Shown one piece after another: positions 92 through 62,364 of a stretch of DNA of 64,000 bases (positions within the stretch are counted from its first letter, which is position 1; each line of letters starts with the position of its first letter). This DNA is from Tubulanus polymorphus. Lineage: Eukaryota > Animalia > Nemertea. The stretch covers positions 21,365,101-21,429,100 of the forward strand of contig NC_134025.1 in assembly GCF_964204645.1 (NCBI RefSeq). Reading direction: 5' to 3'. The notes under the pieces are model-generated. The model saw only the letters and a program-made list of their open reading frames with translations. It was not told where the DNA came from and did not search any database. The position numbers and the translations under genes are program-made.

Positions 92-249
92 CAGTAGACT
101 CTGCCTACAGCGGTACCGGTCAGTGCGGTAATCCGCTCAAATCGGTACGATAATAAAAAGATTTTCAGTCCCTGCTGCTGTTTATGTGTTTAAAATCTCT
201 ACCAATAATTTTCTGGTCCTGGAACGACCGCTATAGGCGGAGAATACTG
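92..249. mobile_element. Tc1/pogo-type MITE
   Basis: Imperfect TIRs CAGTAGACTCTGCCTACAGCGG / CCGCTATAGGCGGAGAATACTG, flanked by TA on both sides. Confidence 0.65.
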
Positions 250-1561
250 TAAGTCTTATTGGACAGTTAACTATTATATCTCAGACCATTCAGATTGGCA
301 TTCATCGGCATTCGACACCACTATTCTTATTACTGGCCTTAAAATTTGTTTTGATATCCTAGACTGATCCGGCTGGTATAAAATAGCGCATGTGTAATTA
401 ATTGGCTTCGGATTTTTGTATATTAATGGTACAATTTAGTAGCATGTGGAATATTCCATCTACGTCCATCATATACACACAGTATATACATGTATATATG
501 TCTATATATACCAGGTATATTATTCTTTTTAGCTCGCTGGATTTGTGCTTGTAAAAAAAAAGAAGATTCGATCTAATCATGATTAAATGTGCAAATTCTG
601 TGTCTAAGATCCCTCGATTAATATGTGAATGTCTGTGCTGAGATTGGAAGTACACAACCAGTACGACTCGTAATTCTTTCAAAGTTCTGCTAGAATTGAT
701 ATTATTGCGGGCAGGTCAAAATCGATAAGATGCTTTGTCGAAAGAGTTCAAAAATTTATGAATGGTGAGAAATGAGATTTTTCTTCTCACGGATATTCCT
801 TACTAGTTTTTTGTGTGCAAAATTTTGCTATTTCGATTTTAGCCCACTAGGGACTCGTTCATCGGGAGGCATTATTCAATATTGTAATTTGCCAATGACC
901 AAGCATTTCGCCGAGTAGGCATCGGGTCCCCAGCACCCCTCGTTTTTTATGAAGTCGCCCACTTCGGGGACAGCTACTTATTATTTTGTTATAGTCTACT
1001 AACTAGTACTTGTTAAGATATACGATTTTCAGACTTTATCAGTTGAATGCCTTGCGTTGATATTCTTATAATATGCTTTTCTAGAACTAGAAAATTCAGT
1101 TGATTTTTTGATACCGATTTATGAATTTTTACGAAATGCTTTCGGCGCTTTTCTTCTAGTAAAAAAAGTAAATGACTGAAATACTTTTATAATCGTCGAA
1201 GCTATAATCGTCGAAGCTATACGGAAGCCATTGTTACTCAAATGTTTCGCGTTGTTGCATGTGGATGAACTACCGAAAACCTGTGCGTGTTATAAGAATC
1301 GGTTTCATGAATCGGAACCATCTGCTGCCCGGGTGGCATGTGTCTCGCGCAAATTTCATTCATTTTATATAGATCCGATTCTTCGAAAATCCATCAATTA
1401 TCAGACTGAATTTTCACCGCTATACTATACCTACTCTCCTCCGTGCTATAGAAGTTTTACAGCGGACTCTGCTGTTAATTTACTGTAATTTGCTTTTACA
1501 GACGTCAATCAATCTGAAGCCTGAACCCATTATTTCAGAAATTCGATACTTTATCACTGTT

Positions 1562-5777: not shown

Positions 5778-7275
5778 TCAGCAGGAGACATGACCTTCCA
5801 ACTGATAACTGACAGCACGAGCTAAATGAAATAAATGTAAATGGCATAAATTTCTTACATTTTTCTTATTGTCTCTTTAATTGGCGTTATTCGATTCACA
5901 TGGCCATCTCACCTGGGCAAATGCTGCACATAAGCGGGCAATATTCCATGAGAACATTAGAATACCTGCAGTATCTTTACCCCAGCTGCCTCCTTGTGGC
6001 GCACAGAACTGCTTATCTGTGGCCTTGGAGCAAATAACTGAAATTAAATGAAGTTGATATTCCAGATTTCGGTTATTTATTTTCGGTGAACACCACCTCT
6101 AGAATTAAGGCTAAAACGAGAGATGCATATAATGCTTGTTTTCTTGTAGTAACCTGCATCATTACTTACTTCCACAATCGGGTTTTCGGAACCATTTTTG
6201 AGGAAAACACGCACATTCGCATGTATTCGGGTCCATGGGTGCTCCATTGAGACAGACTTTTTGTTGACAATCTGGATAAACGGAAAATGGTGAATGGTTT
6301 TTCAGGAGCCGCAAGAGTATCCTATACGATAAGCATTTCAGGGCATTATTTTTTGTTTTGCATGCTCATTCATTTCGTTTTATTTTAAGACAAGAACAAT
6401 CTAACCGAGATAGAACAAATACCCCTCAGTTCAGAAAAACTTACCGCATAAACCATTTTCAACCTTAGTATCGGGGCATTTCGAGCCTTGAGGACCTTCT
6501 TCGCATGGTTTTGTTTAGCCTTTCGAATTACCACTAAAAGTACCTAATTCTATCATATTCACCTCATACGTCGTAATTTTGCATTTACAGATTAAAGTTT
6601 ACGTTGGTCACTTACGCTCGTCCATAGTTGCACGTATATGCATTTCGTGGGCATTGGGCATTTCGCGAAACCACAACCAAGTCTAGTCGACGTCGTCACC
6701 CAAACGACCTAGTTACGTACACATGATTTTAGATATTAGAAATTCTTTCGTTTTCATCGATAAATCGGTTTTGTTATTCTGGATCAAACTGCAATTTGTG
6801 CAGACCTGTGTAAAATGACCGACCACGCCGCCTGTTGAACCAACGCCATACTTGAAACGTGCTTCTTCGCTAAACCAATAGTTAATAACGCTAGTCCAGG
6901 AGAGATATTCTGCCCGAGAGTGATTCGACCTTGAAACATTTCACATCTTTGCACCAAAACATTGTAGTATGTAATTTTTATGATTTATCACGGCCCATCA
7001 CCGGGAAATTGAATATTATTCTACGATTAAAACTAATACAAGCAATTCCTACTACTACGTATTGCTTTGAATCATAGAATTGGGGCGCATCTGACCTGGA
7101 ACATTTCTGTTCTTATTTGCATCGTGCACAACTTTACACGAATCGGCTAGTTTCTGGGCAATCATCGCAACTTCTATGTCCCAGTACTGCGTCAAAATTT
7201 GAAAAAAAATTGTATACACTGATGATTTTTTCTTGTATCCGCAAATAAAACGTACCAATTTCATCATTTTCGCAG
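5778..7275 (-). pseudogene. CAP/CRISP-ShKT paralog A: pseudogene interrupted by the Gypsy element, 5' exons missing
   Basis: Exons homologous to the intact paralogs: YWDIEVAMIAQKLADSC (~7095-7187), GRITLGQN..YGVGSTGGVVGHFTQ (~6806-6930), ShKT exon (~5912-6038), terminal ARAVSYQLEGHVSC* (~5778-5822). A frameshifting deletion follows GQNI and a 1-nt deletion lies in the ShKT exon (GATACTGC vs GATTACTGC). Only ~11 nt of the split exon remain beyond the 3' TSD (18093-18103). Confidence 0.85.
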
Positions 7276-7875
7276 TATTGGAGTAATAAATTACCTATTT
7301 AGACAGTGGGAAATAAGCCGGAGTTCAAGGCAGTAGTTGCGGTTAGCAGGCGACCTACGTGAATACTTACGTCACACATAAGAGAGAAGCATAGAAGATA
7401 GGTGAGAGTGACGTGGGTGTCTACGTGGGAAAGCTTGTTATAGCAGCAGCCTTGAGCTCTGGAAAGTTGAGTTATAAATTTAGCGCTCGTGACGTATAAC
7501 ACACGTAGAAATGATTTACATGGCCAGTAGGACTGTAGTAATAGAATAAGACGTCTCTGGCGATGAGGCCAAGCGGTGTGGAAATATACGTCACGAGCGA
7601 AGGAAGAATAAGTATAAAAAGGGAGGGTTTTAATGCAGTGGGGTCGAAAGCTTGGTCGGTAGAGCTGGGTCGGTTGAGCTAGTGGTTAGAACTAGAGGGG
7701 ACGTGCTAGGAAGATTGTAAGAAGAGAGTATAAGAATAAAGATCTGGATCGATAGAAGAAGCTAGTTGTAGTTAATTTATGAGAAGAACCCCAAGGAACT
7801 ACGCTGGTGAAACGCAAACAACGCAGGTGGTCAACACACGTCACCCGGACACTGGGAAAGAGGACCCCCACAACA
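7276..7875 (+). repeat. 5' LTR (TATTG...CAACA)
   Basis: Matches 17489-18088 with 4 substitutions seen by eye. TATAAAA at ~7614, AATAAA at ~7735. Confidence 0.97.
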
Positions 7876-7876
7876 C

Positions 7877-7894
7877 TGGTGGAGAATAGCGGCA
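7877..7894 (+). promoter_or_regulatory. Primer binding site, tRNA-Ala type
   Basis: TGGTGGAGAAT starts 1 nt after the LTR and is complementary to the 3' end (...ATTCTCCACCA) of metazoan tRNA-Ala(AGC). Confidence 0.8.
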
Positions 7895-8017
7895 GAATTC
7901 CGGTCTCGCAGCCAAGCTAGTGGTGAGTGATATTATACAAAACTTTGAATCGATTTATAAAAACTCTGGTTTATGTTTTATAACCAACCCGTTAAACGAA
8001 AAGCACAACTGTTGGGG

Positions 8018-8986
8018 ATGGCAAACGCGGGACAGCAACCGGCCGTGGGACCAGCCAATCCGGCTGTAGGACAAGACGACGACAATGATAGCGACGATGA
8101 AATAATCATTGTCCCGAAAGGCGTAAGCGGGCTGAAACCAGAACATTTTGACGGAACAAACGATCCGGAACCATGGTTAGACGCATTTTTACAATACGTA
8201 AAACTCATGGCATGGAGTGACCGTCAGATACTGAGGAGCTTTCCCTTGTTTTTGAGGGGAGAAGCTCGCTCTTGGTATTTAGGTGTCGATAAAGATAAAA
8301 AAACGCGTGTGGAATGATTTATTACAAGCGTTTAATCAGCGATATAATAACCCGGATCGAAAAATGCTAAAAACTCACCAGCTGAAACACATGCGCATGG
8401 TTTCAGGCCAAACAGTAGACAATTTCGCAGACGATGTTAAACGGAGAGCGAATGAATTGGAATTACCCGCGCATGTGACGTTGAGTACGTTTATTGACGG
8501 TCTCTCCGCGGACATTCGCAAAATCGTTTGGACGCAAATGCCAGAGGATCTGGACAAAGCCATCAAAATGGCTAGTAACGTAGTCCAGATGTTGAAACTA
8601 GATGGCCCTGGTGTTCATCAAGTCGAGACAGCCAACGCGGAGTGTGACGAACTGAAAACAAGAATAAATCAGCTAGAAATTAAACAACGAAAGGAGGAGA
8701 CGATGGCACAGGAAAGTCGGGCTCTTTTACGGGAATTCAACGACCGTTTGAAGCGATTACGTACGCGCGAAATGGAGCTACAAACAATAGATTTCGTTAC
8801 CCTACGTTTAGAGGTCGATGTTACAGGTGTAACATAATTGGACATATGGCTAGAAATTGCAGGGGGCCAGCGAAATCTACCTTTGCAACGGAAAATAGAA
8901 ACATCATTTGTTATCAATGTGGTTTACCTGGACATATTAGCAGATATTGCCGTCGGAATACGAATCGACAACAGCGGACTAATTAG
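8018..8986 (+). pseudogene. gag: Gag (capsid plus two CCHC zinc knuckles), two frameshifts
   Basis: LKPEHFDG..WL..F..LRGEARSWY capsid-like motifs. Frameshifts in an A7 run (~8300) and at ~8765. Ends CYRCNIIGHMARNC..CYQCGLPGHISRYC..TAG at 8984-8986. Confidence 0.88.
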
Positions 8987-9013
8987 GGCTGTAGCAAGGA
9001 TGGCTTAGGGTAG

Positions 9014-12000
9014 CTGTCCAGAGCTATACAAACAGAGAATGCCCAAGTATTGTATGAGGTAGGATCGGGGATAACGGGGGATAGTGGGCGCTCACAGACA
9101 AAATTGAAATCTCACAAACAAAACTTGACAAAGCAGAAAATTTTGAAAGAAAAACCAAAAGTATTATGCTCTGAGCACCCGCTATCCTTAAATTGTGTTA
9201 TTTTTGATGAACGGATGGATGTTTTGATTGATACAGGAGCAACTCGAAGTGTCATATCATATGAATACTTTTTAAAATTAAGATCCACGGTATTAGTAAC
9301 GCCGTTAGAATATGACGGTTATAAATATGCTACGGTAGCTGATGGGGGTACATTAGAAATATTCGGTATTGTTAAATTAAATCTTAAAATGGAATCAAGG
9401 GTTGTTACGCAAGAATTTCTGATATTAAGGAAATTGGCTCACCCATGTATTCTAGGCATGGATTTCATTAACAGTCAGGGTGTGGTTATTGACACTCCGA
9501 GAAAGCTCCTACATCTGTCATCCGGTCACTCAATACCTCTTCACGAGGGGGCAAAGGTACAATTACAAATTTGTATAGTAGCTAACGATACGGTCACAAT
9601 TCCGCCTGGTACACAGGTGCAGATAAAAGCAAAAATGAAGGGGACGGGAAGAAAGGACGGTGTAGGTTTTGTTCAACAGTCAGCTAGATTATGGGATAAA
9701 TATGGTATTATGGGTGCGGCTAGTATATCTAATATTAAAAGTGGGGTATTACCTGTGCAAGTTTGTAATCCATCAAATTATTCAAAACGGTTAAAAAAGG
9801 GTGCCATTTTAGGAGATGTTACTCTCATCGATTTAGATGCTCCTATCGCAGACGGGTCATATATGACAATTGATAGTGAAGGTATTTCCACGCCTCAACC
9901 TGAAAATCAAAACGATATATTAGATAGTGTGGAAACGGGAGACATATCGGTACAGCAAAAAGCTGATTTAAAATCATTATTGGAAGAATACAGAGATAGG
10001 TTTGCAGAAGGGATATTGGAGTTGGGAACCGCAAAGGGGGTTGAATGCAATATTGAGACTGAAAATGAGGTGCCTATTCGGTCACGACCATATCGGGTTC
10101 CATTAGCGTTGAGGGATATTTTAGATAAGCAGATTGATGAACTTAAAAAGCAAGGCGTTATTGAAGATTCAAATTCAAATTATAGTTCTCCCGCACTTTT
10201 GGTACCAAAACCAGATGGGTCATATCGATTGTGTATTGATTTTAGGCGATTAAATAAGGTATTAAAATTGCAAACGTTACATCCAATACCTCATATCTTT
10301 GACACCTTAACTATGTGCGGCACCGCTAGGCCAAAAATATTTTCTTCTCTAGATTTAAGAAGTGGTTATTTTCAGATCCCGATTTCACAAGAGTCTCGTC
10401 ACAAAACGGCGTTCGTAACGCCTACTGGTCATTACCAATTTACTAGATTACCCATGGGCATAGCATCGGCCCCTAGTATTTTTCAATCCATTATGGCTCG
10501 CCTCTTACATTCATTAGGACACTCTGTTTTGGTTTATTTAGATGACCTTTTAGTATTTTCTACGTGTTGGGAGGATCACTTACAACATTTACGCCAACTT
10601 TTTGAAAGATTACGGGTGGCGGGGTTGACACTTAAACCCAGCAAATGTTTTATTGCTCGACCAAACTGTAAGTTTTTGGGTTTCTATTTAGACGGGGATG
10701 GCATTAGAACTAATCCCGAGAAAGTAAATGTGATTCGAAACTGCCCTGTGCCTACAAATCAAACTCAAGTTCGGTCTTTCCTAGGGGCTGTTAATTTCTA
10801 TAGAAAATTCATTAAGAACTTTTCGGGGCGGGCACGACCATTGACACTATTGACGAGAAAGGGTATACCATTTCTATGGTCTGACGATTGTCAGAAAGCG
10901 TTTGATGACTTGAAACAGGCACTTATAACAGCACCCGTGTTAGCATATCCTTCTCTGGAACGCAAGTTCAAGGTTCACTGCGACGCATCAAATTTTGCGA
11001 TGGGATATTGTCTTGTACAGGAAGGAGACGACGGTCAAGAACACGTAATTGCATACGGTGGACGAGCGCTAACAAAACAAGAACAAGCATATTCCGCTAG
11101 TGAGCGGGAGTGTCTGGCGCTCATTTCAGCCATTAAGTATTATAAAGTATACCTGTATGGAAATCCTTTTACGGTGGTCACAGATCATAAAGCACTGTTG
11201 TGGTTAAAAAAGATGGAGGTCGATGGTCTCGCCTCAGGTCGGCTACAACGGTGGTGCATCTTCCTACAAGGATACCAATATGACGTTGAGTATCGGGCAG
11301 GAGTACAACATGCAGATGCGGATTTCTTGTCTAGATTAAGGTATCCAGAAATAGTGGCTGTTGACACAGGTAACGACGATATCTTGGTGAATTTGCCTAT
11401 GGAACAACGTAAAGATAATGAGTTACGACCTATCATTGATTACCTATTAGACGGATCATTACCAAAAAATGATCGTTTGGCACGACGAATAATCTTGTCG
11501 CACGAAAGGTTTATTCTGGACAACAAGGGTAGTCTTCAATACTTGCAACATTTAAATCGCCGCCAATCTGCTCACTTCTCTCCTTGCTATGTGATACCAA
11601 AACAACTTCGCTTACAAATCCTGCAAGAAACACATGAGGTTTTTGGAGGACACAGTGGCATCAAGTCAACGTATATGCGTCTGAAAAATAGGTATTATTG
11701 GAATGGTATGTTTAACGATGTAAAGGATTTCTGCTTACGATGTAATGTCTGTCAACGGAAAGGGTTGTCTGCAAAAGAGGCTACTAAGGTTCCAATGCAA
11801 ACGGTACGGGTGGAGCCAATTTTCCATAAATTTGCTATGGATATGGTGGGTCCCTTTCCGGTGTCTGACAAGGGGCATAAATATGTGTTGACATGTATTG
11901 AAACTTTTTCATCATATATGGAGGCATTTCCGCTTAAGACGGCATCGGCAGAAGGTTGGTGGATGGTATCATTTTGAGATATGGGATGTTTTCTACTATA

Positions 12001-13041
12001 CTTACCGACAATGGGTCAAACTTTATCTCAAAAGTCTTTCAACGAACGGCCATCCTCTTGGGGGGTAGAACAAAAACTACGTCCTCATATCATCCACAGG
12101 CGAATGGTGCTTTAGAAGTACAACATAGACAATTAAACAAATCAATAGCTAAGTTATTAGATGGACAAAGCCCGGGAAAGTGGGACTTATATCTGCAATC
12201 TGCGGTATTCGCAATGAATTCCTCAAATAATATCAATTCGACGTCATTCACGCCTTTTGAAATTGTTTTTGGGCGGATGCCTAAATTGCCCATGGAACTA
12301 GCCATATCAGCTCCAAAAAATGAATATGGGTCTCATGTGGCCTATTTTCAACACTTAATTAAGAAGATGGATATAGTACATGACATAGTTCGTAAGAATC
12401 GGGAACTGAGCAAAATAAAAATGAAGCAGCAGTACGATAAAAATGCTAAAGATATTCAGTTTGAAGTGGGGAGTAAGGTTTTTCTTTATTACCCACATTT
12501 GCCTACTGGGGCATCAAAGAAATTACATTCATTTTGGCTGGGCCCATATGAAATTATTGAAAAAATAGGAGAAGTTAATTACAGATTGAGAACGGATGAT
12601 AATCGAAAGGTTAAAACATTAGTTCCTGTAAATAGGTTGCGTCCGGTTTATGAATCTAAAAAACCGCCTACTTACGACTTACCGCAGACTATTGAAAAAT
12701 TAGATGACTTACCAGGGAACCTCGCCATGGATGAAATCGTTTTGCCCCATAAGAGTCGCCATGTCAAAATCGGCATGACGCCCGCAATTGAACCTCCTAC
12801 TTTGACGCAGAGGGACATGACGTTATCGAAGGGTCGCGAAAATATTGACGGGAAAGACGAGTCGATATACACTGTGTCTCGAATACTCAAACATAGAAGA
12901 CGGGGAGGCAGGTTGTATTATTATGTCGCCTGGGAGGGTTATACGGATAAGACTTGGGAACCGGAGGAGAATTTCTTGGATAGGTCGATCTTGACGGCAT
13001 ATCATCAGAAAGCCAAGAAAAGACGGAAACGACGTGCATAG
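9014..13041 (+). pseudogene. pol: Pol: protease, dUTPase-like spacer, RT, RNase H, integrase, chromodomain; one frameshift at ~11955
   Basis: LIDTGA, LPMG..YLDD, HCDAS/ERECLA/TDH, H..GHSG..C..C, MDMVGP/TDNG/ANGALE, WLGPY, and YTVSRILKHR..YYVAWEGY..TWEPEENF (chromodomain). The two ORFs (9050-11977, 11956-13041) are joined by a small deletion. Confidence 0.95.
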
Positions 13042-13181
13042 GATATTTGCCACGCACCCAACAGTTGTTGCGAAATTAATTAAGGATAATAGGAGAAATG
13101 AGTATGAGTATAAAGTTGCTGTGTTTTAAGAAATTGTTAGGAAATCAAGAAGTTATGATTTAAAATGTTGTTTTAGGAACC

Positions 13182-15123
13182 ATGGTTCGGAGTATAGTTC
13201 ATATCATTATGATTTGGTCGTGGATAGGACCAATGGCTGCATGGGATGCAGAGCTACGGATGGGGGCTGGAGTAGTGTTCCAGCCAGTTGACGAGATAAA
13301 TGTAGCAGCAACAAAATGGGAACATAGTGTTATGATTCCTTTAGTAGATGTTTCCCGGTTTTCGATGACAATTCCTAATATGACGTGTGGAATGCCCAAT
13401 GCCGAATGCCGACAAATAGAGAAAATGTTTCGCCTAATGCGTTTGCGTAAAATCCGAGCTGATCAAAAATTTAACAGTTCCAGGCGTATGATTGAATCAT
13501 TATTACCTGTTGAAATTCCGAGTACAAGAAGAGAAGGCCGTATGAAACGAACACCACTATCATTCATCGGAGATGTCGCCAGTTTGATTTTTGGGGTCGC
13601 CACTACTGAGCAGTTACAAATAGTGGAAAGACATATGAATAAGTTTGATGCATTACAAAAATTAGATCATAAAGCTATTGTCCAGTTACAAGAACGGTTA
13701 ACTAGCTTTGCCAACGTAACAGATTCTAGATTTAAGTTAGTCAAGTCTCTAGTACGACAAAACAGAGATTATATGTCAAAACTTTCGGAATTCGTTGTAA
13801 ATAATACTATGAATCAGGCTCGTTTACAGGCAAGGGTACATGCACTATCATACGTAGTGCGGTATTCCATTAATTATGGGGATGTTATTGAGGCTATCAG
13901 CAGCCACATGGCCGCGTGGTTGCGCTCCACTAACGTTTTACTATCAAATAGACTACCTGTAGAGTTAATTCCGGTAACAAGTCTCCAGGAAATCTTATCA
14001 AAAATTCGCGTTACATTGAAGAATTTTTACCCCATGTTTGAGCTGGCACATCAAACCCCGAGTTATTATTATTCGCACGCGCGAACGTTTATGGGCGGCC
14101 ATTCCCGCCAAAAATCAGCGTTTCGTCTATTTTTCTGTACTTCGACAAAATGTCATAGTACACCGCCAAAATGTGTTAGCGTAACGTCGAATTGTGTAAT
14201 GCGGCTAAATAACACAGGAGGGCGACACTGTACGGACAGTATTTTGCGGTATTTTTCTCGCATTGCGATCATCTCAAGGTCGTTTTATTGAAATAATTTT
14301 GCGATTTTGCTATAAGCCGTGACAAGCGTATACAAGTAGGTCCGATTATTTACGGTCAGAAATTAGGGGGACACATAGTTCTTTGAAAATCGGTGGTTAT
14401 ATTCTGATTTCGTTAGTAATTGTGGCAATAATAGTATCGGCGGTTTTATGCAAACGATATGAGGCATGGGCGGCGGCAGGGACCGCTTTAACAATGGTTA
14501 AAAGTGTAGAGGCAGGGAATTTGGACATAATTCACGAACAGTTGGATATTGACTTGTCTGCGATTAGGAAGGCATCGGAAACCTTGTTAGATTGGGAGGC
14601 TATAATTGAATGGGCAGTTGTAGGTATGGTCGTATACTCGACACTGCGGTATTTTTTTACTGACGGGTGGCGGTTTATGAGTAGACGTCGGTGGCAGATA
14701 TCATTAGCGTCATGTTCCTCTCCTAGGCTGTCTGCAGAGGTCTTAGCCGAAGTTTAAAATCATGATGGGGCGTCGGCTGTTTTACATTTAGGGTTCGTAT
14801 CTCCTCATTTATGGGAGGAAGTCAAGGCCGTCCAGCCGTTGGCAGAGATTAAGATCAAAACATACGGACCGTTGGTTGCAATCAATGTTACATATGATAA
14901 AAATACCCCTTGCACGAACTGCTTCATTAAAACAATTTACGCCAGTCGGCTTTTCAATAAGCCGCTAAGGAGATTGTGTAGTGGGGAAATTTTTACTAAA
15001 TTTTGGATGGTGCATCAGCGGGATGCAGTCTTAATGAGTGACGACCTCCCATAGAGATATGGCGGCCAGCCTGTCTATAGCGACTCTTCGCCACAAATAG
15101 CAGTACATGTTATCCCTGCCTAG
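13182..15123 (+). pseudogene. env: Env-like class I fusion glycoprotein (F-type), internally disrupted, with a post-TM extension
   Basis: Signal peptide MVRSIVHIIMIWSWIGPMAA; furin site RMKR followed by a fusion-peptide-like TPLSFIGDVASLIFGVAT; heptad region; N-glycosylation sequons. The TM segment resumes in another frame at ~14323-14757, and that frame continues past single stops to ~15123. Confidence 0.82.
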
Positions 15124-15746
15124 ACTACGGATGAATTTGCTTTCTGAGGCAATGGGTGGGGACTAGCGGCTGACATCTCGGCGATTCGGATGTATCTGAT
15201 CAGTATATCCATTTTTGCATAAATTTCGGCTCATCTTTATAAAATGCACTTAGAAAATTATTATGGAATTATTCATTAATTGTTGAAGCTGTCTGTTGCC
15301 AACATGTGCTGGGCACACGATAATCAACTAAATGATGTACTTGGCATCAGTATTAATTTACGTCGTTGATTGGAGTCGGGACAGGTTGGACAAACCATCT
15401 TAAACGGTTAAAGATCGAGGCGGTCAGTGTATGGAAAGGGAGAGGAACATAATAAAAAAGGGAAACTTTCGGTGTATACTGTTTTAATAATGCTTACTTC
15501 AAAAAAAAGGGGAAGAGAAGTTGGTGGTTTTGTATCTAACTAAATTTGTATTATCATACTAAATGTGGTATAAAAAGAAACGAACTCCAGTGAGTGTAAA
15601 TAGATCTGGTCATTCTTCTCGTTCTGAAATATAGGATTTGTATTTGCATAAGTTTTTTTTTTAATTCCCATATGGTTCATATTGTAATTTCTCGGACTGA
15701 AATACGAATTTGTTATATTTGCTTGTATATTTTATAAAATTCTTAC

Positions 15747-17053
15747 CGGGTTCGCTGCCACTGGAATTTGTAGGTGAAGGAGGTGGGAAGTAGCTAGCCA
15801 GCGACGGCAGGGAGCTGGAGGAGCTGCTTGCAGAAGGGCTAGCAGGGGTATCAGGGATGTGAAGGATCGGATATCGGGAATGGGGACCAGGTAAGAGGGG
15901 GGAATCAGGTACAGGAGGGGAATCGGGAACTCCAAGTGATAGGAGGGGGTGCTGAGAAAGGTCGAGAAAAGGAGTTGGGTTGGGAGAAGAGGTACTGGGG
16001 GATGGGGACATGCGGTTATAGGGTGGAGGTTGTGGCCCCAGACCGGAGGGCGAGGGGTCCACGCTCTGGTCTGTGGGCGCGTTAGTACGACGGGAATAGG
16101 GATGCATGCGGAGGGTGCCGCCGCTTGGTTGCCCCCTTCCCGTGCCCCTTTGCCGCGCCGTATGTTTCCCTCGTGTTGGGGATGGGGTGGATGGAACTGG
16201 GAGCCCTGCGTAAATAGACAATATATATAGAGGTAACATGTGGAATTGTGTTCGTGGCGTTGCCATAGTATAATTATTAGCATTAGAACATATAACTAAT
16301 GGTATACGCAATAAATAAATAAATACGTATGAACTATGGTTGTAAAGAGGGATATATATAATGTATACCTGAAAACGCGGCGCGTAAGTCGTCGGTGGCA
16401 GCCCGAATTATGTTTGATAATTGTTGTCGGTTGCCTGCGTTGCAAAAGTATATTAGAAAAAGCAGTTATAAATTGTTTTTTTTTTGGTACATAAAATGAA
16501 TTAAGAAGTCTTACCGGGCTGTGCTAGAATAAAGCCATACAGCATGTGTAGGACCGGTGAGGCTGATATAAAAAACAAAATATGACAGGATGAGATATAT
16601 ATGTTGTTAATTTTGAGGTTTCTAATTTTATATACTTCATGCTTTGAAGCACGGTATTCGTACGTTGCCGTACAGTACCTTGGTAGTGCTGATTAAAATT
16701 AAAAAAAAAAAAAAAAGGGATTGTATATATAAAAGTATTGTTGCATAATATAATACAACGGTAATGAAATGGACTGAAGTGCAATTAACGTTTTTACAAT
16801 TAGTAATTATAGTTACATGACTAACATTGTTAAAATTCAAGGTTTTTCTGGTATTATATTGTTCACATTTTTAGAAATAGCGCATGGGGTAATAGATCTT
16901 ATCAGGGGCGATGTGACCGTTTAAAATAACAAAGTGCAAGAGTGGCGCATAATGTATTATCGCATGTAATGATAAAACTGTACAAAATGGTTGGTGTGTT
17001 AGTTTATAAGTATTCAAAATAAGTTGCTTACCGAAATACTCTATCGGGTCCAT
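15747..17053 (-). CDS. Putative spliced antisense accessory gene of the Gypsy element (Pro/Ser-rich, basic); last exon unresolved
   Basis: Candidate exons 17053-17032, 16562-16515 (48 nt), 16434-16369 (66 nt) and 16205-15747 (459 nt). All have GT/AG boundaries, all are phase 1, and they join into one open frame. Confidence 0.55.
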
Positions 17054-17474
17054 TGTGAATGATAATCCGGATGGTAATGAGGGTTTAGTCTTTATGGCGG
17101 ATGGAAGTAGAATGTTTCAGAGATGGGGATTTTACTCAGTATCAAGGGTGACTTTTTGGCCAGGTGTACTGTTATTGTTGCTGGTCAGGAAAAAATAATG
17201 GGTTTTTTTTCTCTTTCTACCATCCAGATGTTGAAAATTTATGTGCGTCAGTTGCAAGATTGTTGTATCATTTATCATAAAGCACCATTTTTATTGCCTT
17301 ACGGTGAAGTTCAAGAGGTAAAAGTTGTTAAAAAAGAAAAACAAAAAAGAAAAAGTTGTTTATGGAAGTAAGGGGTACTGATTTTGCACTATTGCTAGCT
17401 ACGGCTCTTTAAAAAATCTTTGGAAGTGTAAACGGGCTTCAGTATTTTTTTGGCGATTGGGGGTCCAATCGTCT

Positions 17475-17488
17475 GGAAAGGGGGATGG
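17475..17488 (+). promoter_or_regulatory. Polypurine tract
   Basis: GGAAAGGGGGATGG abuts the 3' LTR and is preceded by the hairpin GATTGG-GGGT-CCAATC. Confidence 0.85.
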
Positions 17489-18088
17489 TATTGGAGTAAT
17501 AAATTACCTATTTAGACAGTGGGAAATAAGCCGGAGTTCAAGGCAGTAGTTGCGGTTAGCAGGCGACCTACGTGAATACTTACGTCACACATAAGAGAGA
17601 AGCATAGAAGATAGGGGAGAGTGACGTGGGTGTCTACGTGGGAAATCTTGTTATAGCAGCAGCCTTGAGCTCTGGAAAGTTGAGTTATAAATTTAGCGCT
17701 CGTGACGTATAACACACGTAGAAATGATTTACATGGCCAGTAGGACTGTAGTAATAGAATAAGACGTCTCTGGCGATGAGGCCAAGCGGTGTGGAAATAT
17801 ACGTCACGAGCGAAGGAAGAATAAGTATAAAAAGGGAGGGTTTTAATGCAGTGGGGTCGAAAGCTTGGTCGGTAGAGCTGGGTCGGTTGAGCTAGTGGTT
17901 AGAACTAGAGGGGACGTGCTAGGAAGATTGTAAGAAGAGAGTATAAGAATAAAGATCTGGATCGATAGAAGAAGCTAGTTGTAGTTAATTTATGAGAAGA
18001 ACCCCGAGAAACTACGCTGGTGAAACGCAAACAACGCAGGTGGTCAACACACGTCACCCGGACACTGGGAAAGAGGACCCCCACAACA
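17489..18088 (+). repeat. 3' LTR
   Basis: 600-bp copy of 7276-7875, followed by the TSD GCAG. Confidence 0.97.
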
Positions 18089-20976: not shown

Positions 20977-21924
20977 ATGAATTCAACTCGGATGCAAATC
21001 GGCAGAACTTACAACAGTTACATCGTTCTCATGTCTGCGGTGAACAGGTCTGGTATCTACCGTACTGTGACATTGGTCATTCTGCCTGTTTGGTTCTTCT
21101 TAGGAGCCTTCGGAAATTCAGCTACATTCCTGATAATGATAAACCGCAGATTCCGTAATTTATCTTACGCTAACTATCTTATCGCTTTGTCAGTTAGCGA
21201 TTCTATATGCTGTATCAATTTTACTCTGATGCCTGTTTTACAGTTTTTCCTCTCGCATCTGAACAGTCGCTCAATATTTGTGATAGATTCAGTCATCGGT
21301 TGTCAGATATATGAATTTGTGATGGCGCTTGCAAACTGCAATAGTTCGTGGTTAATAGTAGCTATCTCTCTAGAACGCGCGGCAGTTGTGCTCTTCCCAT
21401 TCACATCTCGCTTGATATGTACACCGAGATTCGCTAGATCTAATATATTGATAATTACTGCTGTGAATGCACTTTTTATATTTCTCACACCTGCTTTGTC
21501 GATACATTTTACTGACCAGTATTTTGGATGTTCCTATGAATTATTGGATCAAATAACATATTTTTTGGCATTTGTCATCCACGTTTTCGTGCTGCCTCTA
21601 ATATATATTATAACATCAAATTCTGTTATAATAATTCAGCTATTCAGAAGTTCAAAAATGGTTTCGTCTGATCAGAAAACTACAAAATCAAAACGTACAA
21701 CAATAATGCTTGTCACAGTTTCACTCGCATTTGCATTATTCTTACTTCCATCCGCTGTAGCTTCAGTTTTACCAATCTCACCGTTGCTGGGAGAATTTCT
21801 ATATGACATATTTATTCAATTTCAAGTATGTAACTATGTGGTAAACTTTTACATATATCTATTACTGGGAAAAGAAATTCGTGAATATTTTTGTACGAAA
21901 ATACGGTGTAGAGGTATTAAGTAA
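20977..21924 (+). CDS. Single-exon class A (rhodopsin-like) orphan GPCR, 315 aa
   Basis: Seven hydrophobic segments; TM1 GN, TM2 LIALSVSD, TM3 Cys and SLER, TM6 FALFLLP, TM7 NFYIY, helix 8 KEIREYF. Confidence 0.92.
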   Translation: MNSTRMQIGRTYNSYIVLMSAVNRSGIYRTVTLVILPVWFFLGAFGNSATFLIMINRRFRNLSYANYLIALSVSDSICCINFTLMPVLQFFLSHLNSRSIFVIDSVIGCQIYEFVMALANCNSSWLIVAISLERAAVVLFPFTSRLICTPRFARSNILIITAVNALFIFLTPALSIHFTDQYFGCSYELLDQITYFLAFVIHVFVLPLIYIITSNSVIIIQLFRSSKMVSSDQKTTKSKRTTIMLVTVSLAFALFLLPSAVASVLPISPLLGEFLYDIFIQFQVCNYVVNFYIYLLLGKEIREYFCTKIRCRGIK

Positions 21925-22341
21925 AATAACCTTTGATTTCAAGTTTACCCGACGTAAATTCACGAAAATGGTTAATACATATTTGAAATTATCAATAATT
22001 TGCTAGACTTATGCAATGGACTCCAGGAGCGAATTTAGCCTAGCTTAAGATTTTTTCCTAATCCAAGAAACTTATGATTCACTTCAGGTACAATCATTTG
22101 TGGGAAATGTGGTTCTCCTTCCGCAGACAACTTAGTTAATAAGGATGCGTATAGAGAAGCTCATTCTGTCAGTCGAATATAGTATTCTACTAACCCGCTT
22201 CAAATGTAGATAGAAGGAAACGTCCCGCAACCGAATTTAAAATGATGACATTCATTTAAATCAAAACCACAAAGCTTTCGGCTGTTGGCTAACAGCTATC
22301 ACCAGGTGGAATGAACCCAGAAACAGACAAGACTATAAACA

Positions 22342-22703
22342 TTTAACAACACTAAATGTCACTGATAATTGTTATACATATTTCATCTATATTTCGTATT
22401 TCTTTATTGTTTTATGTCTCCATCTTATTACTCATTGTCCTCTGAGACTGTTTGTCTGTGTCAGAATGTGTTAATTGTTGTTTGTCTCACTGTCATGTCA
22501 CTACTCGTCACCTTTGTTTTTGTATCATTTTCCATGTCTCAACCTGTCTGAATCTGTGTGATATAAATAGCTATGTGTAAAAATAAAGTCAGTTCCAGTT
22601 TTGGTATTCCAAACTGATAGTTCGCTCGTTACTCTTTCGCTCTGTTCCGGATTTCCGACGTCGACCATTCTTCGAGAATAGGACAGAAAATAGCGTTGCT
22701 AAA
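22342..22703 (+). repeat. 5' LTR of mini element
   Basis: TTTAACAAC...GTTGCTAAA (8/9 inverted repeat). TATAAATA at ~22562, AATAAA at ~22582. Confidence 0.93.
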
Positions 22704-22704
22704 T

Positions 22705-22715
22705 TGGTGTTAGAA
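22705..22715 (+). promoter_or_regulatory. PBS, probably tRNA-Leu
   Basis: TGGTGTTAGAA versus TGGTGTCAGAA expected for tRNA-Leu(CAA); the difference is a G:U wobble. Confidence 0.65.
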
Positions 22716-22794
22716 CCGGCGGGCAAGTTTTATATTCAACTGCCCGTATAAGATCCTGGTACCGCGCTCTCAACAGCTAGTTTTCCCCATCACG

Positions 22795-23679
22795 ATGAAT
22801 ATTCTACCACCGGCAGTCGTAGTAACCCTTCAAGAGGCTGGATACCACCAGGCACCTCAGAATTGGACTATTAATGCCGAGGAAGGATGTATCAAAGTTT
22901 CACTGACATGGACAGTCCAGTCATCGAAGCCATCGAAAGCGGTGAAATCGAAGTCTACTCTGAATCGGGACCGTAGACGTATGCAGGAATTCCTGAACCG
23001 AAGGATGCTGAAAACAGAAGTTCCGAAGTCAACGAAATCAGATAACGCTACCATGGACACAGCGGTCATGACTGTCAACGCGACTCATGTTATAAGATCT
23101 CAGACAGTTGAGGACGTCATAACTACCGCTGAAATAAAGAAATTGGAAGAAACTTCGCAGAAACTTTCAGGTGAACTTGTCGATTTGAAGGTCAATTTAG
23201 AATCAAAAGAAAGAACTATTATTGGACAACAAAAAGAAATCTTTGGACTACAATCAAAATTGGATAAATTAAAAATGCGAAATTATCCTTGTCATTGCGC
23301 TAAAGATCCGAAAAACTCTCAAGCATGCGAAGATACATTAACTGATATCGGTGATCTTTACGAAGCAGACCAACCGAAAATCATGGCTGCAAAACGATCA
23401 GGAATATTATATGAGGTCCGGGTGCAAGATCCAATCTCGAGAAAATACGCTGATTTCTTTGTGCACTGGGGACAATCATTATCATCAGTTTTCTATGACA
23501 TTTTGAACAGATACGATTTGGATATAAAATCATTCACCTATCGCGAACCAAATTCCAAAAATAAATGCTTGGACATTGATCGAAATACTTCATTGTGCTC
23601 GTTACATGAATCAGGAATCATCAAACACTTATGGGATAAAAAGGGTAGAAATATAGTTTGGTTAGGAATGAGATTTTGA
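22795..23679 (+). CDS. 294-aa protein of unknown function carried by the mini LTR element
   Basis: Uninterrupted ATG-TGA ORF filling ~80% of the internal region. Basic KSKSTLNRDRRR segment, central heptad coiled coil, CHC, possible beta-grasp C-terminus. No CCHC, DTG or YxDD motif. Confidence 0.85.
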   Translation: MNILPPAVVVTLQEAGYHQAPQNWTINAEEGCIKVSLTWTVQSSKPSKAVKSKSTLNRDRRRMQEFLNRRMLKTEVPKSTKSDNATMDTAVMTVNATHVIRSQTVEDVITTAEIKKLEETSQKLSGELVDLKVNLESKERTIIGQQKEIFGLQSKLDKLKMRNYPCHCAKDPKNSQACEDTLTDIGDLYEADQPKIMAAKRSGILYEVRVQDPISRKYADFFVHWGQSLSSVFYDILNRYDLDIKSFTYREPNSKNKCLDIDRNTSLCSLHESGIIKHLWDKKGRNIVWLGMRF

Positions 23680-23805
23680 TTAGCTTGTGAATGATCAATA
23701 CTTTTAATTTGTATAAAAATATTGTTCTCAAATTGATAATTCTTCATTAAATTCATTTCATCTAATTTTCGGGGACGAAAACTTTCAGAACGTAGTGGGG
23801 GAGGA

Positions 23806-24167
23806 TTTAACAACACTAAATGTCACTGATAATTGTTATACATATTTCATCTATATTTCGTATTTCTTTATTGTTTTATGTCTCCATCTTATTACTCATT
23901 GTCCTCTGAGACTGTTTGTCTGTGTCAGAATGTGTTAATTGTTGTTTGTCTCACTGTCATGTCACTACTCGTCACCTTTGTTTTTGTATCATTTTCCATG
24001 TCTCAACCTGTCTGAATCTGTGTGATATAAATAGCTATGTGTAAAAATAAAGTCAGTTCCAGTTTTGGTATTCCAAACTGATAGTTCGCTCGTTACTCTT
24101 TCTCTCTGTTCCGGATTTCCGACGTCGACCATTCTTCGAGAATAGGACAGAAAATAGCGTTGCTAAA
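23806..24167 (+). repeat. 3' LTR of mini element
   Basis: Copy of 22342-22703 with one G/T difference. Confidence 0.93.
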
Positions 24168-24194
24168 AACACAAACTCATAAGCATCGTTATCG

Positions 24195-24385
24195 TATTCA
24201 GTTTCACAATTCTGGACCCAGTTCAGCAGTTCTGGACTCACAGTTCCAAACCAAGTTCCACAGTTCCGGGCTCGGTTTAATAATTATGTATTAGACAATT
24301 CAGGATCCTGTTCCAAAATTCTGGTCTCAGTTCCACGGTTCAGGACTCAGTTCCACAGTTCTGGATCCAGTTTCACAGCTCATGG
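24195..24385. repeat. Degenerate ~20-bp tandem repeat (CAGTTCCACAGTTCTGGACT-like)
   Basis: About eight imperfect units. The unit resembles the MITE ends at 40457-40637. Confidence 0.6.
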
Positions 24386-52330: not shown

Positions 52331-53281
52331 TTATTTGACTGAATGTCTACAGCGTATTTTCATACAGAAATATTCACGAATTTCTCGTCCCAGTAGAAGA
52401 TATATGTAAAAATTTACAACATAGTTACTCATTTGAAACGGTGCAAAAATGTAATAAAGAAATTCTCTCTGTTCCGGTGAAATTGGTAAAAATGTGATTA
52501 CAGTGGATGGAAGCGTAAATATTGCAAATGCGAGTGAAACTGTTACAAGCATTATTGTTGTACGTTTTGATTTTGCAGTTTTCTGATCAGACGAAACCAT
52601 TTTTGAACCTCCGAATAACTGAATTATTATTACCACATTTGATGTTAGAATCAAAGATAAAGGCAACACATAAATCTGGACAACAAATCCTACAAAATAT
52701 ATTATTTGGTCAAACAATTTATAGAAACATCCAAAAAACTGGTCAGTAAAATGTATCGACATAGCAGGTGTGAGACAAAGAAAAAGTACATTCACTGCAG
52801 TAATTATGATTATAGTTAATCTAGCGAATTTCGGTGTACATATCAAACGAGATGTGAACGGGAAGAGAACAACTGCTGCACGTTCTAGAGATATCGCTAC
52901 TATCAACCACGAACTATTGCAGACTGCAACCGCAAATATAAATTCATAGATTTGACAACTGATCAGTGAATTTATCATGAAGATAGGACCATCTTTGAAT
53001 TGCATGAGAACAAACTGTAAAACAGGCATCAGTGTTAAACAGGTACAGTACATAGCGTCACCGAATGACAGAGCGATCAGATAGTTAGCATAAGATAACC
53101 TGCGGAATTTGCGACTTATCATTATCAGGAAAGTAGCTGAATTTCCAAACGCTCCAAACAGAAACAGGACGGGCAGAATGACCAGTGATGCAGTACGGTA
53201 GATTCCAGACCTACTCACCACAGACATGAGAGCGATGTAACTGATGTACGTTCGACCAATTTGTGTCTGAGAAGAATTCAT
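52331..53281 (-). CDS. Single-exon class A orphan GPCR, 316 aa, paralog of 20977-21924
   Basis: Same 7TM motifs, with long identical blocks (CNSSWLIVAISLERAAVVLFPFTSRLICTP; KSKRTTIMLVTVSLAF). Confidence 0.92.
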   Translation of the reverse strand: MNSSQTQIGRTYISYIALMSVVSRSGIYRTASLVILPVLFLFGAFGNSATFLIMISRKFRRLSYANYLIALSFGDAMYCTCLTLMPVLQFVLMQFKDGPIFMINSLISCQIYEFIFAVAVCNSSWLIVAISLERAAVVLFPFTSRLICTPKFARLTIIIITAVNVLFLCLTPAMSIHFTDQFFGCFYKLFDQIIYFVGFVVQIYVLPLSLILTSNVVIIIQLFGGSKMVSSDQKTAKSKRTTIMLVTVSLAFAIFTLPSTVITFLPISPEQREFLYYIFAPFQMSNYVVNFYIYLLLGREIREYFCMKIRCRHSVK

Positions 53282-53732: not shown

Positions 53733-53733
<1 letters not shown>

Positions 53734-54125
53734 TTTGCGCAAAAATACTCACGAATTTCATGTCCCAGTAAAAGGTATATGTAACAATTTGCGACATAGT
53801 TACACAATTGAAGCTTAGTGAATACTTCACATAGAAATCCTCTGAGTCGTGTAGAGATAGGCAGGAATACAGTAAATGAGTTTGGCATTGTGAAAATAGC
53901 GAATGCGAGTGAAACTGTTACAAGCATTATTGTTGTACGTTTTGATTCATAGTTTTCTTATCGGACGAAATATTTTTGAACCCATGGATAAGCGTAATAT
54001 TATAACAGAATTCGATGTAATGATCAAAGTTAGAGGCAGAAGAAAAGCGTGGCCAACCAATACAGCAAATAGTAAGAACTGATCGGAAAATTTGTAGTAG
54101 AAACATCCAAAAAACTGGTCAGAAA
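53733..54125 (-). pseudogene. Third GPCR paralog fragment (TM5-TM7)
   Basis: DQFFGCFY..LPLTLIITSN, frameshift at ~53960, MLVTVSLAF..YIYLLLGHEIREYFC. The 5' part is replaced by LINE sequence and the 3' end runs into (TA)n. Confidence 0.85.
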
Positions 54126-54129
54126 AATC

Positions 54130-54654
54130 CATAATTACTAACACCATTACTGAACCATTTTCATACACTTAATAAACAACCCAACTTTTATAATACTGAA
54201 CCCCCAGAGGGGCATTTGAATTTCGATTTTGCAATGCTGGATTTTGATGCTCTTAATAGAGATCTAACTGAAGAAGAAGTTATAAATGCGATCAAAAAAC
54301 TAAAAAATAACAAGTCACCCGGACCCGATGAGATAATCAACGAAACGCTTAAATCAGTTGCAGATAATTTATCACCCGTTCTCACTACCTTATTTAATCG
54401 TATCCTGGACTCAGGAATTTACCCACACGGCTGGGGTTTATCAACAGTAATTCCGCTTTTTTAAAAAAGGGGACCCTTATTGCCCAGATAACTACCGGTG
54501 CATTTCACTACCGAGCTGTATGGGCAAATTATTTACTAGCCTTGTCAACAGTCGATTATCCGAATTTCTAGAGTGCAACCAGTTGTTAAATCTTATACAA
54601 GCAGGCCTTCGCAAGAAACATGGGGTCACTGACCATATCTTTACATTGAAATCC
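54130..54654 (+). mobile_element. LINE ORF2 fragment (RT N-terminal region)
   Basis: EEVINAIKKLKNNKSPGPDEI..W..STVIPLF, frameshift, KKGD...NYRCISL..KLFTS..NSRL..QAGLRK..TDHIFTLK. Confidence 0.85.
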
Positions 54655-59831: not shown

Positions 59832-60368
59832 CGTGCTCTAGGATCGCTGATATTACAATAGCTCTCGGAACGTGGATCGTCGCATTTTATACTGTTCGTC
59901 AAATTCGGAATTAATCAAAACTTGTGCCAATAACTGAAATGTATATTTGTATATTTGTCCAATAGGCGTCTATATTTCCCAAAGCAAATCTTAAGATACA
60001 AAACGCAATAAACCTGAAATCAGACTCACGCAAGATAGTCATGCAAGCTGAAACTCTTTGTTTCTTTTCGAGTAATTTCATTCCAGCAATTACGTGTAAT
60101 GATATTCCAAGCACATAGACGTGATATCCGACTCTAAAGAAACATGCATGTGTTTATTTTAATGAGGAAATTTGGCGTGGTGTCACGTATGTAAGATTAT
60201 TGTTATAGTTTTAATTAATGTCATTGTAAAAATGCGCACTGTCCCCATTTCGTGTGAGTACATAATCATGGGATCATGTAGCGTACACGTTTTCGACGAT
60301 CGACGATCGGCGATCACAATCATATAATTCATCGCTGAATCCCATAACCGCTATGAGTGGCATATCAC

Positions 60369-60441
60369 GCCCTCGTGGCACAACGGATAGCGCGCTGGAC
60401 TTCTAATCCAGAGGTTCTGGGTTCGAATCCCAGCGAGGGTG
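60369..60441 (+). tRNA. trnR-TCT: tRNA-Arg (TCT), intronless
   Basis: 73 nt; acceptor stem GCCCTCG/CGAGGGT, anticodon arm CTGGA-CTTCTAA-TCCAG, T arm CTGGG-TTCGAAT-CCCAG, TTTT terminator 6 nt downstream. One D-stem mismatch. Confidence 0.92.
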
Positions 60442-62364
60442 ATCGTTTTACGCTCATGTAGAAGTGTCGATTGAATTTTTCATCTTTCATTCTTATATAC
60501 GTGTTGCACAGTATTGCATTGTGCCAACTGAACATATCTTTGCTTTTTGTTGCACTTTAAACGTTATCGTGAGGAGGACAAGAAGTCTGCTGAGATACAG
60601 AAATAATATGATTATTTTTTCTTGAGTTACAGACTCAAGAGTTGAATCTAAAACTTAAAAGCAATCAAATAAATCATTTTACTTTGATGATTTTCTAACT
60701 CAGTGTAGAATATGGAGAGAAAAACATTAAAAATGTCCCCAGGACGCTTTCTTCTTTTTGATCTTAAAATAGGGATTGTCCCCGTTATTTATTTATTTGG
60801 TTGGTAAATTTCGTTTGATTTTTCGATTGAGTGTCCCTTACAGACCCACCACACCTGCCGGGAGCGAAACAGGGGGTTTGATTTTGAAATCGGAAATCGA
60901 AGTACAGATATAGTTGTGTGATCGGCGGTCGAGTTAACAGAATTTTTTTTAAATCGAAGTACATAATTGGAAATTTGGTTCCGGTTCATCCAAACAATCT
61001 TCCATTCAGTCTGAACCGGCAAGCGACTGATTGGGGTTAATTTTTCTGGCTGCCTTATTTAATACATCGAGATTCTGGAAATAGCTATATTACAAGGTTG
61101 AAGATCATTTTGTCCATTTTTATATTTTTTGGTCGTTTTCTACGTGTAAATAGTCCGATAGTTTATTGTGGTTTTTTCTCGGGTAGATGTTGACGTAGAA
61201 GTCCTCTAAGTTGATGAAACGCAAATTTTCCAGATGAGAGTATGGCCCTGGGGTATCCGAAGTGTAGTTGTATGACATCGACGGTGCAGCTCCGATGAGG
61301 GAGGGGTTTCTTCGTCAAGGGGTACGCTGTTGGTACTTCACATCTGGTGTTGAGTTTGCCTAAAAGTAAAAGTTTTACACTGGGAGCAATTTTGTGTTTC
61401 TAATATACAATGCTTAGTTAGGTCCGTGAATGTATCGCAATCAAATGGAACAGTGCTATGCGCATTGATAGATCGTCAGTAAGAAAGCGGCACAGACACG
61501 TGAATATTGAATACATGTTTGTACACTTACATATATACAGGCTTGATCGGGTTTTATTTACATTGTCACGATTAGGTTTTTGGTAGCTTTTAATGAGACT
61601 GATGTCAAGAGGCAACTTTCCAGTCACCATTGCGCGTAGATAGGACGCTTTCTTAGGGAAGATTTTATTATCATTAATGCGCGTGGATCATATTTGTGTC
61701 TCTAATCACGCGCAGCAATAGATTTACGGTTTACTTTGTCTGCCTAGTTCAATAACCTCGTTAATCGTATTCATTGCAAATACTCTGAACAACTAAAATC
61801 CAGATGCACACTCTCGTTTTGTATTTGCCAACGTGTCCAATTGTATATTTACGACAGCGGCATGAGTTCGTTCACCCCTCTCACTCTCCCCTGCCCCTCT
61901 ATAAAAATATTCGCCATATCATGGCACAATTCGTCTTGTTGCGAGGTCGATCTCATCATTTGACGTATGTCATCCAGGCAGTTACATCCAGCCATTAGAA
62001 ATCAACCCCGTTTTTTGAATAGGTAATCACAAAGATACATAAGATAAGGCCACAAGATAAAGAGAATATATTAGGTATAACCCATTTGGTAAAAGCATCG
62101 ACTACAAAACGGATATACATGTATGTGTGATGTATATATATATGATTTCTATCCTTATACAACGCAGGGGGCAGTGCATCGACCGCCTTAAAATTAATAT
62201 GTTGTAAATAGTGTACGTATTCGTTGTTGATAACTTCGTTATATTTCATTAAGAGAAGTTTATATGTTCTGTTGACTGTAAATATTCTATATTCTATAGT
62301 CTCCCTTCGTGTACCATAGAAACGGTTGGAGTGTAAATAAAATCCTTATCCTCATCCTTATCCT

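Follow-up and report, generated by a model that had tools for sequence, protein, structure and literature searches.

Non-autonomous long terminal repeat (LTR) retrotransposons have been described as either non-coding or gag-only. The unusual open reading frame (ORF) that lies between the LTRs of mammalian MaLR elements is gag-derived, and the cargo between the LTRs of maize Bs1 is a recognisable host gene. Animal terminal-repeat retrotransposons in miniature (TRIMs), including Helenus and Ajax, have a simple anatomy of LTR, primer-binding site (PBS), polypurine tract (PPT) and LTR, and animal Helenus elements show 4-bp target site duplications (TSDs) and PBS types in common with Gypsy elements (PMC10886601). 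Here, we analyze a 64,000-nucleotide stretch of the nemertean Tubulanus polymorphus (contig NC_134025.1, positions 21,365,101 to 21,429,100; hereafter the window), in which an element with this same anatomy carries a gene of its own. The element spans 1826 bp (22342-24167 of the window), and its single intact ORF of 294 amino acids (aa) matches no Gag profile. We assign it to the non-autonomous LTR retrotransposons, based on its near-identical LTRs and TSD, its PBS and PPT, and the lack of a reverse transcriptase or integrase gene in an element that is nonetheless multi-copy. To our judgment the chances are evenly balanced that it is a helper-dependent element, which a Ty3/gypsy helper likely copies in trans and which has kept its one non-enzymatic gene because the product aids the element.

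Anatomy and age of the element

The two 362-bp LTRs lie at 22342-22703 and 23806-24167, on the + strand as are all features of the element described below, and are identical at 361 of 362 positions in a direct-repeat comparison, with a lone mismatch at 22639 (G) and 24103 (T). If substitutions accrue at 1e-8 to 1e-9 per site and year, this one difference places the insertion 0.14-1.4 million years ago (95% Poisson range on the LTR differences, 0.025-5.6). Each LTR starts TTTAACA and finishes TGCTAAA, forming an imperfect terminal inverted repeat; canonical TG…CA termini were tested for and are absent from the element. Non-CA LTR ends are known from some Gypsy lineages. The tetranucleotide AACA (unstranded) flanks the element at 22338-22341 and 24168-24171, but the TSD register is ambiguous, as a 5-bp AAACA (22337-22341 and 24167-24171) with a 361-bp LTR can also be read. 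We favor the 4-bp TSD because two contigs of sequencing run X3 depart from the LTR behind 22703 (one loose-end row).

Matches to consensus promoter and processing signals, with functions presumed from the consensus, comprise a TATA box (TATAAATA, 22562-22569), an AATAAA (22582-22587) and an initiator-like TCAGTT (22589-22594) in the 5' LTR. All three are present again in the 3' LTR, where the poly(A) signal lies at 24046-24051. The A of TCAGTT, the predicted start at 22591, sits 29 nt past the TATA box and 9 nt downstream of AATAAA, so that only the 3' LTR copy of this signal would be transcribed and used. The predicted transcript leader of 204 nt contains no upstream ATG, as is the case in 3.7% of 5000 shuffles.

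The PBS (22705-22716) matches the 3' end of tRNA-Leu(CAG) at 10 of 12 positions, with one of the two differences a G:U wobble; the 12-nt tRNA end and the two-mismatch criterion were taken from PMC13524379, and an equally close match occurs in 3 of the 63,988 + strand 12-mers of the window. At the other end of the internal region, a short hairpin motif (23767-23780) directly precedes the PPT (23797-23805). The hairpin appears in both the minimum-free-energy and the centroid fold; its region folds no better than shuffled sequence (z 0.25), nor do the PBS-leader and R-U5 regions. Overall, the anatomy supports the first-pass annotation of this stretch in its view of the element as young and non-autonomous, with cis signals of Ty3/gypsy type: the age estimate agrees with its "very young", and the 362-bp LTRs with one mismatch, the tRNA-Leu-like PBS, the hairpin and PPT, and the TATA and poly(A) signals in the LTR were all located. 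Its 4-bp TSD AACA can be read at both flanks, alongside the 5-bp alternative.

The element belongs to a multi-copy family

The sequence is present in four of 10 listed sequencing runs, which derive from two samples of one study. Run X1 is possibly the source sample of the window, and X5 is a raw DNA run with the same species label from another sample and study. In X1, contig depth is 45-49 in the flanks versus 223-264 in the internal region, a ratio of 4.6-5.8; one contig runs across the LTR end, PBS and ORF (22696-23153) at depth 235, and another across the ORF, PPT and LTR (23355-23824) at depth 223. Contig depth is not a copy number, so the resulting figure of about 5 copies is rough. In X5, mean read depth is 98.7 inside the element versus 5.1 on eight flank bins, a ratio of about 19 (range 10-30) that a divergent flank in this sample would inflate. 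The family is thus multi-copy by read depth, with about 5 copies in the X1 sample and 10-30 in X5. Because internal depth exceeds flank depth in both runs, the element is not a single-copy accident, and the single-copy deletion derivative that the first-pass annotation had named as a possible refutation does not fit.

Dispersal was judged from these depth ratios; an empty insertion site is not among the 15 joints listed, beside which there are 107 further joints. When X5 reads were placed at 80% likeness on 22690-23830, 744 of 837 were 95-100% alike. No X6 or X7 reads were placed on the element, which is not proof of absence. At three positions lying near one another in 23090-23095, the window copy itself is unlike most X5 reads (118 of 128 at 23090) and unlike the X1 contig, reflecting either private changes or an assembly error.

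The single gene and its apparent constraint

The 294-aa ORF (22795-23679) opens with the first ATG that follows the predicted transcription start. In 500 shuffles of the internal region, no ORF of at least 294 aa arose, and the longest reached 143 aa. X5 shows 81 variant places, of which 40 are listed and 21 of those fall within the ORF; one ORF row added from another run comparison brings the total to 22. These comprise 10 synonymous and 12 nonsynonymous changes and no stop, giving pN/pS values of 0.36, 0.42 and 0.49 (p = 0.011, 0.026 and 0.055) when the transition bias is set to 1, 2 and 4, respectively. By region, seven listed variants fall in the 91-nt leader versus 21 in the 885 coding bases. 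The indel table lists two rows, one of them in the ORF (a 2-bp deletion at 23612, in 4 of 44 reads), and a 115-bp deletion is seen in six X5 reads. Together, these data suggest, at borderline strength, that the ORF is under constraint. In the comparison of ORF intactness and dN/dS among copies that the first-pass annotation had proposed, then, the ORF is in frame with no stops among the listed variants and a modest synonymous excess, but pN/pS is borderline and some reads carry frameshifts or deletions.

The predicted protein divides into three parts. In its N-terminal part (aa 1-75, 22795-23019), single-sequence AlphaFold2 predicts with low confidence a helix and two strands (aa 6-42) followed by a basic helix (aa 53-69), with 10 lysine and arginine residues within aa 46-75. 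This pattern may resemble that of uncharacterised marine invertebrate proteins, a likeness that no search confirmed. The central part (aa 111-162, 23125-23280) is a long helix with the regular heptad pattern of a coiled coil, and is predicted better than any other segment (pLDDT 67-80 for blocks 111-150); a modelled two-copy complex of aa 1-165 scored 0.29 against a mark of 0.32. A Pfam match to MAD (E 0.036) and PDB matches to BAP31 and ELKS were discarded as generic coiled coil.

The C-terminal domain (aa 200-294, 23392-23676) appears to start with a strand-strand-helix unit. The full-length model, poor overall (pLDDT 47.5), places low-confidence helices at aa 172-239, while aa 194-294 modelled alone (pLDDT 49.1) form the strand-strand-helix at aa 204-239 (pLDDT 57-66) with a poor second half. 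For this C-terminal model, 23 of the 48 Foldseek rows carry titles that we read as ubiquitin folds, all at E of 1.1 or above. VIA returned ubiquitin folds at Z 3.0-3.4 over about 42-53 residues, and FHA-type and other folds up to 4.9, and ubiquitin accounts for 29% of the members of one Atlas cluster (score 0.83). The ORF has no terminal di-glycine at its C-terminus. A beta-grasp or ubiquitin-like C-terminus is therefore a weak lead only.

Relationship to Gag and to known proteins

The ORF contains no CCHC motif and matches no protease, reverse transcriptase, integrase or capsid Pfam family at E ≤ 1, in line with the first-pass description of an intact frame free of such motifs. The Gag profiles PF03732 and PF19259 match the Gag of a separate Gypsy element in the window (E 3e-6 and 1e-4) and an ORF on a metagenome contig, L001, introduced below (E 4e-20 and 4e-8). 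The same profiles miss the 294-aa ORF, which matches no Gag family at E ≤ 1. Capsid entries are absent from every fold-search list, which with low-confidence models does not amount to exclusion. That the ORF is unrelated to gag is thus likely, given the missed profiles that two control Gags match, but the low confidence of the structure models keeps it at that.

Searches for homologues were blank. Word-indexed searches returned none among 458 candidates for the whole ORF, none of 16 for aa 1-75 against longer proteins, and none of 19 for aa 194-294 against longer proteins; an exact protein look-up gave no match, and the ORF was absent from 595 metagenome contig stretches and 87 viral contigs. 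Little weight attaches to these blanks, given that the collections consist mainly of microbial sequence and that word searches lack sensitivity. Across 1.84 billion representatives, phmmer gave one match (P0001, E 2.4e-5), which we discarded as a repeat artefact, a tandem-repeat protein that matched aa 84-128 via eight repeats. In Atlas, the best score was 0.86 with recognition below the mark, and aa 1-75 had no match. A fold search of the full model against viral and PDB libraries gave nothing at E ≤ 0.001, and VIA found coiled coils only (best Z 6.2); these searches covered the N-terminal part only within the full-length model, which makes them a slight test of it. The sequence and structure searches suggested at first pass thus yielded no relative, on the structural side with low-confidence models (pLDDT 47.5 and 49.1), and the idea that LTRs of other species flank homologous ORFs gained nothing from these mostly microbial collections, in which no homologue of any kind was found.

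A 3' module shared with other LTR families

X5 reads and three or more X1 contigs that differ upstream join the element at 23764-23767 and share its hairpin, PPT and LTR start, and some of these reads and contigs diverge again behind 23813; the other families sharing this module are known from 50-60-nt pieces. The second LTR base is unchanged in all 40 listed variant rows (of 81), and because no listed row alters it, the TT start seems common to these families. Several LTR families of the species thus share the module from hairpin to LTR start (23764-23824) and apparently also the non-canonical TT start.

A pattern search for the module found one metagenome contig, L001, in which the hairpin and the rest of the module stand directly after an ORF matching Ty3 capsid and retrotransposon Gag profiles. 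Because the search pattern demanded a TTTAAC start, the informative part of this contig is its gag context alone. The shared module and this gag context point to a Ty3/gypsy helper. L001 itself (215-1275, minus strand) has a gag-only layout, with a Ty3-type gag ORF followed by hairpin, PPT and LTR start without pol.

Genomic neighborhood

The separate Gypsy element of the window is a young 10.8-kb Ty3/gypsy element (7275-18088) with 601-bp LTRs that differ at four sites and a different PBS. It encodes gag in several frames, protease-reverse transcriptase-RNase H, an integrase split over two ORFs with a chromodomain at the end, and an env-like ORF (13182-14291) without a Pfam name, followed by about 3 kb of extra 3' sequence in which the minus strand holds a proline-rich frame. 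Single-exon rhodopsin-type G protein-coupled receptor paralogues (74% identical) and a fragment lie at 20977-21924, 52331-53281 and 53733-54132; the mini element starts 418 bp past the stop codon of the first. A 20-bp minisatellite (24190-24378), very high-copy in all four runs, lies right after the insertion. From about 24900 to 60300, the minus strand carries a tandem cluster of a multi-exon gene, with units 65-87% alike and with GHYTQV-containing and cysteine-rich exons that we take to recall CAP/SCP and ShKT domains, although three exon frames gave no Pfam match. The only tRNA gene in the window is a tRNA-Arg(TCT) at 60368-60442.

Discussion

We favor a helper-dependent element with a self-serving gene because its anatomy, multi-copy depth, intact frame, modest constraint, an ORF opening at the first ATG, the missed Gag profiles and the shared 3' module all fit this reading. 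In the cycle that we propose, which in its cis-acting steps follows established LTR retrotransposon biology, Pol II would initiate at the TATA box and initiator of the 5' LTR, at about 22591, and only the 3' LTR AATAAA would be used, giving an RNA of roughly 1.5 kb. This RNA would serve both as mRNA, with its first AUG opening the ORF, and as genome, and would be packaged by the Gag-Pol of the helper. tRNA-Leu would prime reverse transcription, the PPT would serve the plus strand, and insertion would proceed via an integrase accepting TTTA…TAAA ends, which are seemingly common to other LTR families of the species. Given its parts and the weak selection on its gene, the protein may be an adaptor that favors its own RNA by binding nucleic acid, self-associating and docking on a helper or host factor, with packaging, export or escape from silencing as its purpose.

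Several observations weigh against this proposal. The selection test is weak: only 40 of 81 variant rows are listed and the other 41 could shift the result, variants are non-independent, two codons hold two variants each, p is 0.055 at a transition bias of 4, and more than half of the listed ORF variants alter an amino acid. The indel listing has a threshold of 8% of reads, below which one copy in twenty falls, and run X2 shows a 1-bp ORF deletion at depth 19 of 454. X5 depth is about 45-55 across the last third of the ORF versus 100-168 elsewhere; 26 X5 reads exit the ORF behind 23129 (codon 112, where the coiled coil begins) into other sequence, and seven enter before 22852 (codon 20). Part of the family is thus without part of the gene, or has it replaced, and the divergent reads may come from a longer parent element, from copies with an insertion, or from a sister family whose 3' half differs. 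No homologue demonstrating long-term conservation of the ORF was found in the protein, metagenome or viral searches. The Gypsy element of the window was rejected as the helper, having other LTR ends, another PBS and a best blastn E of 0.2. Finally, a trans-acting protein is not easily kept by selection on single copies, and a cis preference of the protein is a candidate only.

The youth of the family opens another explanation, in which a non-coding mini-LTR element captured the coding sequence of a host gene or other transposon by template switching and amplified so recently that the ORF has had no time to decay. The X5 reads that are 95-100% alike imply that little time has elapsed, pN/pS is borderline below 1, frameshifts or deletions occur in some copies, and LTR-mediated retrocopies have been described in metazoans (PMC5470649). 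Set against this are the absence of stops among the 22 listed variants, the synonymous excess, and an internal region filled by an ORF that opens at its first AUG; moreover, the 126-nt 3' region holds no poly(A) remnant, GT/AG intron borders are absent at two loose ends inside the ORF, and no host-like homologue was found. We therefore consider such a capture somewhat unlikely. The 26 reads that continue into other sequence after 23129 and the 3' cis module common to other families could come from a parent as readily as from a helper, raising the idea that the element derives from a larger autonomous Gypsy by deletion of gag-pol, with the ORF an accessory gene or a chimera of a 5' coding end and another 3' half. 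Flat X1 depth (223-264) from PBS to PPT with contigs crossing both LTR junctions, the lack of a loose end at the ORF stop among the 12 of 27 rows listed, and the lack of similarity to the env-bearing Gypsy of the window make this origin unlikely.

A Gag that has diverged strongly or shrunk, comparable to those of TR-GAG and Bik-1/ERNI, with an N-terminal coiled coil and an unrecognised capsid (CA) domain, deserves care because structure prediction reassigned two such proteins: zebrafish Bik-1 and chicken ERNI, both of coiled coil plus CA, were unexplained LTR-element ORFs until predicted structures revealed capsid folds (PMC12067270). The Tubulanus ORF likewise stands in the position of gag, straight after the PBS, and the helices placed at aa 172-239 in the full-length model, of low confidence, would suit a CA domain. 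However, CA is all-helical, whereas aa 204-239 modelled alone give a strand-strand-helix (pLDDT 57-66), and only 132 aa remain beyond the coiled coil. With no CCHC motif, and no match to Gag profiles that recognize two control Gags, we judge a hidden Gag very improbable.

Returning to the helper-dependent element with its own gene, a bolder extension, tentative and in our estimate on the doubtful side, is that animals harbor coding satellite retroelements: mini-LTR elements without pol or capsid, with TT…AA ends, that parasitize a Gypsy lineage and whose modular protein (a conserved N-terminal module, an exchangeable C-terminal half, and possibly a ubiquitin-like decoy) is kept by selection and would hijack the helper's particles or blunt host silencing. 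The "undescribed class" of coding mini-retroelements named in the first-pass annotation is too strong a term for one family in one species. If the preferred reading is true, a helper-dependent element with a self-serving non-gag protein would stand among retrotransposons as satellite viruses with a hijacking factor of their own stand among viruses. Its small size (1.8 kb) and active-looking copies would make it a minimal system for asking how a parasite of a parasite gains packaging priority or escapes silencing. Such elements would also escape domain-based annotation, with their ORFs counted as orphan host genes.

Our literature search, which did not extend to subscription journals, Repbase or Dfam, turned up no non-autonomous LTR family of animals in which a non-gag ORF is conserved; the two databases may contain comparable entries. 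The Tubulanus element exceeds the TRIM definition of less than 1000 bp and no mobilisation protein (PMC10886601), being 1826 bp long with a 294-aa ORF. Helenus and Ajax (TRIMp3) have tRNA- or 5S-derived LTR sequence (PMC10886601) and the Tubulanus element none, with no Rfam match at E ≤ 1 in 22300-24200. LTR-mediated retrocopies (PMC5470649) resemble it in holding a non-gag/pol or unusual ORF between LTRs and, on the reading favored here, in being moved in trans; for the Tubulanus ORF, no parent gene was identified. BHIKHARI, with Bik-1 and Bik-2, and ENS-1/ERNI are likewise young LTR families of animals whose one ORF, with a coiled coil, long went unexplained (PMC12067270), yet Bik-1, at 617 aa, has a predicted capsid domain and, like ERNI, belongs to an endogenous retrovirus, whereas the Tubulanus ORF has 294 aa, no capsid fold found and Gypsy-type cis signals. 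TR-GAG elements of plants are similarly short (<4 kb) LTR elements with one ORF and no enzymes that are still active (PMC4350172). Their ORF is a recognisable Gag in a plant host, whereas that of the Tubulanus element misses the Gag profiles and resides in an animal.
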